This document shows, piece after piece, positions 13,020-15,140 of a DNA stretch of 46,261 nt. The stretch's first letter is position 1; each line of letters begins with the position of its first letter. The translations under genes were made by a program, and so were the position numbers. The stretch is from Candidatus Heimdallarchaeota archaeon (GTDB taxonomy: Archaea > Asgardarchaeota > Wukongarchaeia > Wukongarchaeales > JBHIFL01), in the NCBI GenBank assembly GCA_046761065.1, contig JBHIFL010000032.1:1-46261 (forward strand), in the 5' to 3' direction. The notes below the pieces were generated by a model. The model was given only the letters and a program-made list of their open reading frames with translations, ran no database searches and was not told the origin of the DNA.

Positions 13020-13513
13020 AATTTAACCTCAAAAACTTGATGATCGATCACGATCAAAAGCTTATTGACCGCGGTCTTTCCAAGATGGGTGCAGAATGGC
13101 TGATGGTTTCAGTGAGGGCAAAAATGAGACTAAAAGCTACGAATGAATAATGTTATGGAGCAGCTTATCTGAAACAAGTGCAAACCAAGAAGTATAAAAA
13201 CTGTAAAATGAACAAAGCTAACGGTTAACAAAGTTTTGCTTGTTCAAATTTATTCAGAAATAGAATAAGGAGATTGATCCCCGAAATTTCAAGATATCTT
13301 GATTAAAACAATGACTCTTCCGATTATCCTTATTATTAATTAAATCATAATTATACAATACCAAGGATAGCTCATATTTCTTCCAAAAAATTTAAAAAAA
13401 TCTTCTACTCACATAATAAGTATCCTTCTATTTTTATAATGTCTAGATGACATTTAAATCATCCGAAACGTCATTTTGGGGGAGGAGATTATTCTCTATA
13501 TTAGAGGATTTAA

Positions 13514-13570
13514 AAAATATAGCCGACATTTTTCGGAATATTTAAAATATAGCCGACATTTTTCGGAATA
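13514..13570. repeat. Tandem direct repeat, 30-bp period, 27 bp identical (AAAATATAGCCGACATTTTTCGGAATA), each unit with a CCGA-N6-TCGG palindrome
   Basis: Copies at 13514-13540 and 13544-13570, about 110 bp upstream of the recombinase. Confidence 0.95.
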
Positions 13571-13679
13571 AGTGATATATAATGTTGGATGTAACCCATA
13601 AGGTGAAACCTTGTAAATCTGTTTCTATTCAAATTTTTCAGGATTATTGTAATATTTAGAAATCTTAGGAGGCTTGCAG

Positions 13680-14714
13680 GTGGAGCTGAGTAAAGAATTG
13701 GAACAGATAGGGAATATTCAAGATATTGAATTGCCATCTCGAATATATCGTGTAGACAAAACAACTAATATTCCCATACTTTCAAAGTATTTGCGTTTTG
13801 TGGGACGCGAAGGAGCAAAATCCACCATCGAAACTTATCGGATAACTCTTCGAGAATTTTTATTGTTTGTTGGTGATTGTTTCACGAAAGATACAGTTAA
13901 GCGGATTGCGCCCGAAGAAGTGGAAGATTACTTCTTATGGTTGGATACTGAACGAAAAATTCGGAAGAATACACAACGAAACAAATACTTGTATCTCCAT
14001 GCATTTTTCAATTGGTGTGTAGAACGGAACTACATTAATACAAACCCGGTACACAAAGTAAAGAAATTTGTACTCCCCTCAAAGCGTGCTATTGAAAAAG
14101 AAAAACCGAAACGTCCTTTTTTTAGTGAGTTAGAAGTTTCAAATATCCTCAAAAGTATCAAGGGGGAGGATCTCATTAGCGCGCGGGATCGGGTATTGTT
14201 ACGGTTTGGGTTTTACTGTGCTACTCGCGTGGGGGAAATAAGAGCCCTCCGGGTTGATTGCGCCTTCAAGAATCCAACTTCCCAGAGATGGTGGATCAAC
14301 TTCAGGGGGAAAGGGGATCAGCGTAGGGAACACCCCATTCCCGATCAAGTATTAACGTTTCTAAGAGAGTATCTTACACTGCGTAATCTCGATTTAGCAC
14401 CAGATCAATGTATGATGGAATGCGGTGCATGTACATCTCCATACATGTTCACAACGCGGACAGAGAAACCGTTTACTACAAACCAAGATGTGACAAGACG
14501 TTTGAAAAAATACGTGGCAGCAGCAGGACTTGACCCGGCCCGCTATGCGAGTCATAGTATGCGACGAAGTGCGATCACCTTGATGTTGAAAAAAGGTATG
14601 CCATTGAATATTATTCAGAAATTTAGTGGACATAAGGATATCACCATTCTTCAGCGTTATTTAAGAGATATGCCTTCCACAGTTGAAGAAGAACTTCCCC
14701 GTATTAATTGGTGA
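13680..14714 (+). CDS. Tyrosine recombinase/integrase (Xer-like) with N-terminal core-binding domain and a Cys-rich insertion
   Basis: Catalytic set RVGE, GKG, HSMRRS, SGH, RYL; GTG 13680 follows an AGGAGG SD. Confidence 0.95.
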   Translation: MELSKELEQIGNIQDIELPSRIYRVDKTTNIPILSKYLRFVGREGAKSTIETYRITLREFLLFVGDCFTKDTVKRIAPEEVEDYFLWLDTERKIRKNTQRNKYLYLHAFFNWCVERNYINTNPVHKVKKFVLPSKRAIEKEKPKRPFFSELEVSNILKSIKGEDLISARDRVLLRFGFYCATRVGEIRALRVDCAFKNPTSQRWWINFRGKGDQRREHPIPDQVLTFLREYLTLRNLDLAPDQCMMECGACTSPYMFTTRTEKPFTTNQDVTRRLKKYVAAAGLDPARYASHSMRRSAITLMLKKGMPLNIIQKFSGHKDITILQRYLRDMPSTVEEELPRINW

Positions 14715-15140
14715 ACCCAGGACATATTTTTAGTCCTCAATGACAGGGACAAGATGGATGGATAGATAGATAGTGCAATGATTCATAAATAAATGAAAGA
14801 AGAGACTTGAACCGTGTTTTTTGAACATTCAGATCTGTCTTATCCGAAATGTTTACATTTCTTACACTTTTTTTGTTCAGAAGATAGATTATATCCTATT
14901 AGGTAGGATGTTTACAGTTCCCTGTTATCCCACCAAAGTGTGCACAATTCGAAGAAAACATAATGGCCGGAATAAACTCCTATATAATATCATATACTAA
15001 ACAAATCATTCCTGAGAGGAAACGGGAGTTCGACCATGTGATTTCAAATAAACTTTAAAGAGGGATAGTCCCATTCAGTGAAACTCCTATCAAAAGAGGA
15101 TAGGTATCAAAGCTCATTAACTCATGTTGGAGGTTAAAAG

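Follow-up and report, generated by a model that had tools for sequence, protein, structure and literature searches.

The archaeal XerA/dif system has been described by Cortez et al. (2010; PMC2958812), and structures of XerA are available (4a8e and 5hxy). The sites of XerS and XerH are linked to their recombinase genes, and some archaea likewise carry a linked xerA/dif module (PMC5357621), while the tyrosine integrases of archaeal mobile elements are represented by the SSV and pNOB8 types (PMC8371274). Here we describe a tyrosine recombinase gene, a tandem repeat upstream of it and a conserved block downstream of it, referred to as D1, in a stretch of 46,261 nucleotides (nt) from the Asgard archaeon Candidatus Heimdallarchaeota archaeon (contig JBHIFL010000032.1 of assembly GCA_046761065.1). 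We refer to the whole stretch as the window. The assembly comprises 4.4 Mb in 234 contigs and is 91.5% complete with 8.2% contamination. The 90% protein clusters to which its rps3ae and recombinase proteins belong include members that NCBI names as Candidatus Hodarchaeota or Heimdallarchaeota, which agrees with a place in the Heimdall group. In the labels used below, L denotes a locus that was compared, G a genome and C a contig, with G000 being the genome of the window. Our overall account, to which we give somewhat better than an even chance, is that the gene encodes an orphan recombinase derived from the Xer proteins, that the tandem is a duplicated, asymmetric control element of this gene, and that D1 would be the most likely target of the enzyme in cis.

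The recombinase gene spans positions 13680-14714 of the forward strand and encodes 344 amino acids, as do its database orthologues, from a GTG start codon that follows a GGAGG box; its identity is supported by Pfam matches, orthologues, HMMER searches, a tree and fold comparison. The protein matches PF00589 (6e-25; 88.4 bits, cut-off 27.1) and, as a SAM-like N-terminal domain, PF13495 (2.6e-12). All six catalytic residues, R183, K211, H292, R295, H318 and Y327, are present and are invariant or nearly so in an alignment of the recombinase proteins that takes in three canonical XerA (alignment A1). The window protein therefore carries both defining features of the tyrosine recombinase superfamily, namely a PF00589 match over threshold and the R-K-H-R-H/W-Y set of residues. 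It misses by far every named subfamily cut-off of the NCBIfam Xer and IntI models, scoring 101.5 bits against the curated cut-off of 220 for XerA (NF040815), 101.1 against 335 for XerC (TIGR02224), 105.2 against 330 for XerD (TIGR02225) and 47.7 against 265 for the integron integrase (TIGR02249), while the XerA proteins of relatives from the same order score 256-259 bits on NF040815 and so pass its cut-off. An exhaustive HMMER search of 1.84 billion (1.84e9) representatives returned only two clusters at E <= 1e-30. These two clusters, defined at 50% identity, both represent the family; behind them the score falls to 89 bits at 27% identity, and Xer-type proteins with 27-32% identity are the closest sequences beyond the family. 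In a quick maximum-likelihood tree, the family forms a single clade (Shimodaira-Hasegawa approximate likelihood ratio test, SH-aLRT, 100) on a stem of 1.41 substitutions per site, and is placed apart from both the canonical XerA of Asgard relatives and the IntI-like protein of its own genome. The missed cut-offs, the separate clade and the presence of only two clusters mark the family as undescribed and to this extent bear out the original prediction, made from the sequence by itself, of a possibly undescribed module. The family is confined to Hodarchaeales-type Asgard archaea, and no viral relative of the protein was found in IMG/VR.

Comparison of an AlphaFold model of the recombinase (mean predicted local distance difference test score 73.9) with the PDB gave XerA (5hxy) as the best fold match, followed by XerH (5jjv), IntI (2a3v), XerA (4a8e), Cre and XerD. 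Alignment A1 revealed additions that are specific to the family: an N-terminal extension, a basic insertion in the linker and an invariant CxxxCxxC insertion. The last of these lies within the catalytic domain in all family members (14385-14450 in the window), is modelled at low confidence and is possibly a metal or iron-sulphur site. Further conserved cysteines of the family occur in NWC and GC(A/G/I)F motifs. The C-terminal half, which contacts the DNA, is nearly identical across the orthologues, distant ones included. The recombinase would appear to be an orphan, a strongly diverged offshoot of the Xer proteins that constitutes a very small family; it is catalytically complete and looks active. 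Two paralogues, at L025 and L026, lie in another context beside a MazE/AbrB-like gene; in the L026 copy, the reading frame shifts after about residue 250.

The recombinase gene is chromosomal, fixed in position and vertically inherited, as follows from a gene order that is shared by all other orthologous loci. Thirteen such loci were fetched, and in each of the 13 a regulator gene is followed by the recombinase gene and then by rps3ae. The recombinase proteins of L020-L024 and L045 are 67-80% identical to that of the window; L044 and L046-L053 share a 90% protein cluster with it, and in six loci compared among these the gene is 88.5-89.6% identical at the nucleotide level. The regulator gene (12141-13019, reverse strand) was assigned by synteny and by its domains, a winged helix-turn-helix (wHTH) of the HrcA-N type (PF03444, 3.5e-31) and tandem CBS domains (PF00571, 4.9e-26). 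It lies directly upstream of the recombinase gene and on the same strand in every relative (L020-L024, L044, L046-L053), and is inverted in the window strain. All the neighbours are housekeeping genes, encoding the wHTH-CBS regulator, rps3ae, an ArsR-type regulator, a DHH/RecJ-like protein and rps15, and on the longer contigs the order reads rps15, DHH, pcc1-like, regulator, recombinase, rps3ae, ArsR, helix-turn-helix, nucleotidyl transferase, DUF2095 and GTPase. A tRNA search of the window returned nothing, and neither did Rfam, at its gathering threshold or by E-value. Element genes, flanking att repeats and a tRNA target, as would be found with the integrase of a mobile element, are all missing, and the position of the gene is fixed in the relatives. 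In keeping with this, the earlier description of a stand-alone recombinase without mobile-element genes nearby proved accurate.

Outside the coding sequences, conservation in the locus is strongest downstream of the recombinase gene. Block D1 (14830-14876, forward strand) consists of a left arm (14840-14850), a spacer (14851-14856) and a right arm (14857-14867), behind which comes a T run. Across all orthologous loci for which the region is available it hardly varies (alignments A2 and A5), with an identity of 84-90% against about 70% in coding DNA, even where the orthologous proteins are 67-80% identical; the non-coding DNA that flanks it cannot be aligned between distant members. D1 begins 115-119 nt after the stop codon of the recombinase gene in ten loci, whereas its distance to the start of rps3ae varies from 208 to 311 nt. 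Because the distance to the stop codon is fixed, that to rps3ae is variable and two relatives that lack the recombinase have no D1 before rps3ae, D1 travels with the recombinase gene. No second copy was found in the genome and none in the GTDB representative genomes, while a metagenome scan recovered D1 on only two further contigs, in both cases beside the recombinase gene. Written as an 11-6-11 repeat, D1 is symmetric at 6 of 11 arm positions, and these are gathered at the inner ends of the arms. The dif site of Escherichia coli has the same degree and the same inner placement of arm symmetry. D1 (14840-14867) therefore has the form of a dif-type site, which is an imperfect 11-6-11 inverted repeat that is conserved and present in single copy, and, lying immediately beside the recombinase gene, it also has the position of the site in a linked Xer module. 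The original prediction had mentioned in passing a palindrome with 7-nt arms and a 2-nt centre at 14846-14861. This palindrome is present as described and lies within D1; the block as a whole turned out to be far better conserved, and a better placed candidate site, than the upstream tandem on which the prediction had centred. We tentatively regard D1 as the most likely cis target of the recombinase, an identification that is first among the candidates but has a larger chance of being wrong than right.

A second conserved block, D2 (14905-14923, forward strand), is roughly palindromic, follows 69-72 nt after D1 and may possibly serve as an accessory site. D2 looks like an operator that binds a dimer. 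Other explanations of D1 were tried and set aside. A role as promoter of rps3ae was rejected, since the distance to rps3ae varies by 100 nt and no D1-like sequence was detected in two relatives that lack the recombinase. In these relatives, L032 (G002) and L031 (G010), a short open reading frame precedes rps3ae at a distance of at least about 110 nt, and nothing like D1 lies in between, which is consistent with an old insertion of the regulator-recombinase pair in front of rps3ae. The sole match of D1 in IMG/VR lies inside a coding region with unrelated flanks and was taken as chance, so that D1 was not assigned to mobile elements. A look-alike of the left arm at the L026 paralogue falls within frameshifted coding sequence and was not counted.

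The 7-2-7 stem in D1 has acquired three substitutions, none of which is compensated, and RNAalifold found no compensatory pair in D1 or D2. Since the substitutions in the stem are uncompensated, D1 is better understood as a DNA site that would be read by a protein than as a hairpin. This bears on a different explanation, in which D1 would serve as a terminator or other signal for the 3' end, or as operator of one of the neighbouring regulators, and the recombinase would act elsewhere, for instance at a dif-like palindrome on contig 87. D1 is indeed a palindrome that could form a hairpin and is followed by a run of seven T, and D2 resembles a palindrome bound by a dimer. Earlier T runs already follow the stop codon, however, and near-invariance over about 45 bp, combined with a fixed distance to the recombinase gene across a spacer that cannot be aligned, is more than a terminator needs. 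At the L025 paralogue, the right half of D1 alone is retained, immediately behind the stop codon (1467-1500), which also speaks against a terminator or operator. The palindrome on contig 87 (G000:C87:385-416) is of the canonical ATAA-N6-TTAT type, has perfect 14-bp arms that can be read as 11-6-11 and lies near the end of the contig. Close matches to it occur in relatives that carry XerA, with 1 mismatch in G019 and 2 mismatches in G029, where the site is about 6 kb from the XerA gene; at 3 mismatches, the scan of relatives for the canonical dif pattern was too noisy to be used as a count. This canonical site is the main alternative target of the recombinase. On balance, we consider it somewhat unlikely that D1 is only an end signal or an operator and that the enzyme acts elsewhere.

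No canonical XerA was found among the four PF00589 matches of the 91.5%-complete assembly, while two genomes of the same order each have one. Across the sample of the phylum, XerA is patchy, with 10 of 41 over the cut-off, and because of this patchiness and the incompleteness of the genome little weight can be placed on its absence. The remaining tyrosine recombinases of this genome resemble IntI. They comprise integron-integrase-like genes or fragments at L003 (G000:C94), L005 (G000:C178) and L006 (G000:C216), of which L003 and L005 score 441 and 300 bits on TIGR02249.

Upstream of the recombinase gene, the tandem (13514-13570, forward strand) consists of two direct copies with a 30-bp period, each made up of an A/T box and an asymmetric CCGAC core, with the cores at -157 and -127 from the start codon. 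The two identical 27-nt units that had been reported were recovered at 13514-13540 and 13544-13570, and the proximal copy stops 110 bp short of the GTG start at 13680. The duplication is not an assembly artefact, as it is found in four assemblies of the strain, namely the window and three independent Logan assemblies (L027-L029). Allowing up to 3 mismatches, no other copy of the tandem 26-mer occurs in the 4.4-Mb genome. The repeat is also conserved: L046, L049 and L052, whose recombinase genes fall in the range of 88.5-89.6% identity given above, carry two copies at the same positions, with the CCGAC cores exactly at -157 and -127. A single copy at -127 is found in L024 and a single remodelled copy at -136 in L044. 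Conservation upstream of the closest orthologues means that the refuting outcome named with the original prediction, a repeat not conserved there, did not occur. As the single copy of L024 keeps the -127 position, the proximal copy is the older and the distal one its duplicate. Two substitutions of L049 are shared by both of its copies, so that the copies are kept alike by homogenisation.

The original prediction had interpreted the units as recombination or autoregulatory sites of the adjacent enzyme; in the former case, each 27-bp unit would be a core recombination site with inverted CCGA and TCGG arms around a 6-bp overlap. CCGA-N6-TCGG is indeed present at 13523 and 13553, and in the window strain each unit can be written in the 11-6-11 form with 6 of 11 symmetric positions; in addition, the sequence is unique to the locus, and linked recombinase-site modules are known (PMC5357621). 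Among the relatives, the right half of this structure does not hold. In L046 and L049, TCGG is replaced by TCAG or TCGA in both copies, and in L044, L020, L022 and L023 this half is missing, so that the inverted-arm form is seen only in the window strain, L052 and L024, whereas the left part is kept in all. Since the TCGG half is lost and the left part is retained, what is conserved is a direct repeat of asymmetric units rather than a palindrome, and it lacks the inverted arms around a 6-8 bp spacer that would be conserved among relatives in a dif-type site. These losses of the right arm are set against a recombinase whose C-terminal half is almost invariant. While a 27-nt duplication is far beyond chance, 4-bp arms with a 6-bp spacer are at chance level: inverted 4-6-4 repeats of any sequence number 241 in the window, against about 181 expected, and CCGA-N6-TCGG occurs 45 times in the genome, against 21-77 for control words. 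Furthermore, direct core sites 30 bp apart would lose one unit with each exchange, whereas four lineages have retained both. Finally, the nearest breakpoint of a rearrangement described below lies about 85 nt from the tandem, which argues against a crossover in its spacer. We therefore consider it very improbable that the units are core sites. Of the wider suggestion that the locus is a domesticated or undescribed recombination module, what stands is the gene and its fixed context; the upstream units as crossover sites with a 6-bp spacer are not supported by the comparison with relatives.

Instead, we infer that the tandem is a duplicated 5' control element of the recombinase gene, acting as promoter/leader or as operator, rather than a pair of crossover sites. 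A TATA-like box (13497-13503, forward strand) is conserved in the four tandem-bearing lineages and lies 23 nt before the distal CCGAC core. Given the geometry of archaeal promoters, such a box would start transcription near the distal core, and we consider it a putative promoter element. Across the genome, TATA-like words peak at -90 to -41 from start codons. Further roles for the tandem were rejected. A role as regulon operator was discarded, since matches to its 15-mer core motif elsewhere in the genome (11) were at the level of those to a reversed control (10). A small open reading frame across the tandem was also discounted; the 30-bp period is in frame, yet neither a start codon nor a frame is conserved in L046, L049 and L052. 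Long-range hairpins that start at the CCGAC core can be drawn in several lineages, but their pairing partners are non-homologous and the idea of a structured RNA was dropped.

Between the regulator gene and the tandem, a cluster of GACATT/AATGTC words extends over 13438-13474 (no strand assigned), and consists of a palindrome (13438-13454) and a 9-N10-9 inverted repeat (13447-13455 and 13466-13474). Both the palindrome and the TCCGAAACGTC word at 13462 had been noticed earlier and are present as described. The 9-N10-9 inverted repeat is degenerate in the window strain and perfect in L052; its geometry is like that of HrcA and its CIRCE operator. Together with the two GACATT words of the tandem, the cluster forms the only 200-bp stretch of the genome with at least four exact words. 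It is kept in close relatives only and is absent from the more distant orthologues. Because the C-terminal half of the recombinase stays nearly identical where the cluster is absent, the recombinase is unlikely to be the reader of these words, and the adjacent wHTH-CBS regulator is an equally good candidate for binding them.

The cluster lies next to a rearrangement that is specific to the window strain, which alone departs from the common gene order, while the ancestral one is found in all nine other lineage assemblies. Aligned with blastn, the window and L052 form nearly seamless blocks: 20150-17379 inverted, 13430-11962 inverted, 13426-17383 direct and 11953-9002 inverted. In the frame of the chromosome, a 3.95-kb block that contains the recombinase gene, D1 and D2, rps3ae and two regulators now lies, inverted, on the other side of a 1.47-kb block that contains the wHTH-CBS regulator gene, such that all three old joints were broken and three new ones formed. 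The limits of the breakpoints were taken from the blastn blocks against L052, L046 and L049, and none of the three is assigned to a strand. At 13426-13430, the inverted regulator block meets the recombinase block; at 11953-11962, the nucleotidyl-transferase block adjoins the regulator block on the 3' side of the latter; and at 17379-17383, the recombinase block ends against the stop codon of the inverted pcc1-like gene. A loss-free exchange at TA would fit each of the junctions, that at the pcc1-like stop codon included. On its left side, the moved block begins about 8 nt short of the palindrome at 13438-13454 and about 85 nt short of the tandem, which places the crossover outside the tandem spacer.

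In another reading, the GACATT words at 13438-13474, together with the tandem, would be attI-like or arm-type sites of the recombinase, used for autoregulation or for assembly of a recombination complex, and the enzyme would itself have relocated its own 3.95-kb block. An attI region consists of direct repeats and a simple site beside intI, and the GACATT array resembles this layout. The word cluster is the densest of the whole genome, the ancestral breakpoint, as seen in L052, falls just after a conserved GACATT and before the AATGTC of the inverted pair, the three junctions all fit an exchange at TA, and a route through two inversions requires exact reuse of one breakpoint, unlike random breakage. 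We nonetheless judge this scenario distinctly unlikely. The cluster is missing from distant orthologues despite their nearly identical DNA-contacting half, the regulator could bind the words equally well, and a search for a shared crossover core of 6-8 bp at the three breakpoints revealed none beyond TA, the overlaps being 2-5 nt in AT-rich DNA, where TA is often expected by chance. Involvement of the recombinase in the rearrangement, by whatever site, is possible.

At the site that corresponds to the right-hand breakpoint, the contigs of L049 (13715-13776) and L051 (12333-12395) switch to a different sequence and end about 60 nt further on. The first 24 nt of this sequence have three copies in the genome (G000:C31:24073, C31:40288 and C17:14723), each standing before GC-rich, structured-looking DNA. 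The switched sequence possibly marks where a mobile or RNA element ends; a tRNA gene at the end of the L049 contig was rejected by ARAGORN.

Our preferred account, that of an orphan recombinase with an upstream control element and D1 as its candidate target, can be outlined as follows. The wHTH-CBS regulator and the recombinase are fixed as a two-gene unit before rps3ae in one Hodarchaeales-type Asgard clade. The 30-bp tandem would act in the 5' control region of the recombinase gene as promoter/leader or operator, its proximal unit being ancestral and its distal duplicate kept homogenised. The recombinase would target D1 in cis, with D2 as an accessory site, in a manner resembling the linked XerS/difSL and XerH/difH modules. 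Both the promoter or operator role and any binding or recombination at D1 are read from conservation and placement. Several points weigh against this account. The T run that closes D1 could belong to a 3' end signal, and the canonical site on contig 87 means that D1 need not be the dif of the chromosome; a canonical XerA might be missing from the assembly only. With a promoter at -170/-140, the leader would be unusually long, at about 150 nt, and the genome-unique GACATT cluster, including the tandem, could be a binding array for the recombinase or the regulator instead of a promoter.

A further step, which is speculative and in our view fairly unlikely, would be to see the regulator, the CxxxCxxC recombinase and D1/D2 as a self-contained, domesticated site-specific recombination module of Hodarchaeales-type Asgard archaea. 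If so, the module might have taken over chromosome dimer resolution from XerA with a new dif, or might be a regulated system for local rearrangement, in which case the three-breakpoint relocation in the window strain would be its footprint. To our knowledge, chromosome resolution and rearrangement are almost unstudied in Asgard archaea, the closest prokaryotic relatives of eukaryotes. With an orphan enzyme, a linked regulator, an invariant candidate site and a strain with a moved block, the locus offers a small, well-delimited and testable system. Should the enzyme act at D1, the two would represent a new pair of recombinase and site in archaea, possibly one that has replaced XerA/dif; should it not, the locus still documents the conserved control architecture of a domesticated recombinase.

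Compared with known systems, the recombinase shares with the SSV and pNOB8 integrases the common superfamily, and its paralogues at L025 and L026 occur in another context. Unlike these integrases, the copy in the window has no element genes, tRNA target or flanking direct repeats, and its chromosomal position is constant. The likeness to IntI/attI lies in a gene beside an array of direct and inverted copies of short words, and in an insertion in the catalytic domain that is specific to the family. In contrast to IntI, however, the recombinase scores 47.7 bits where 265 are needed, and its insertion differs in both place and sequence; neither cassettes nor attC-like sites were found beside the recombinase gene.

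The XerS/difSL and XerH/difH systems are alike in that a single recombinase is genetically linked to its site, here a candidate site, with imperfect arms, and the inner words of D1, GAAA(A/T) and (A/T)TTTC, recall the difSL arms quoted in PMC5357621. These systems differ in being bacterial and distant in sequence, with no match of the recombinase to the XerS model NF003462 at E <= 0.001, and D1 lies downstream of the gene, not upstream; furthermore, we know of no FtsK partner in archaea. With respect to XerA/dif, the recombinase is only about 25-28% identical to Asgard XerA (101.5 bits against 220), it is set apart by additional N-terminal sequence, by the linker insertion and by CxxxCxxC, and the arms of D1 share no sequence with the canonical ATAA-N6-TTAT type of site. 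In common with XerA, the protein is a single chromosomal tyrosine recombinase with a SAM-like N-terminal domain and the R-K-H-R-H-Y residues, XerA is its best fold match, and D1 has the 11-6-11 shape and is unique in the genome.

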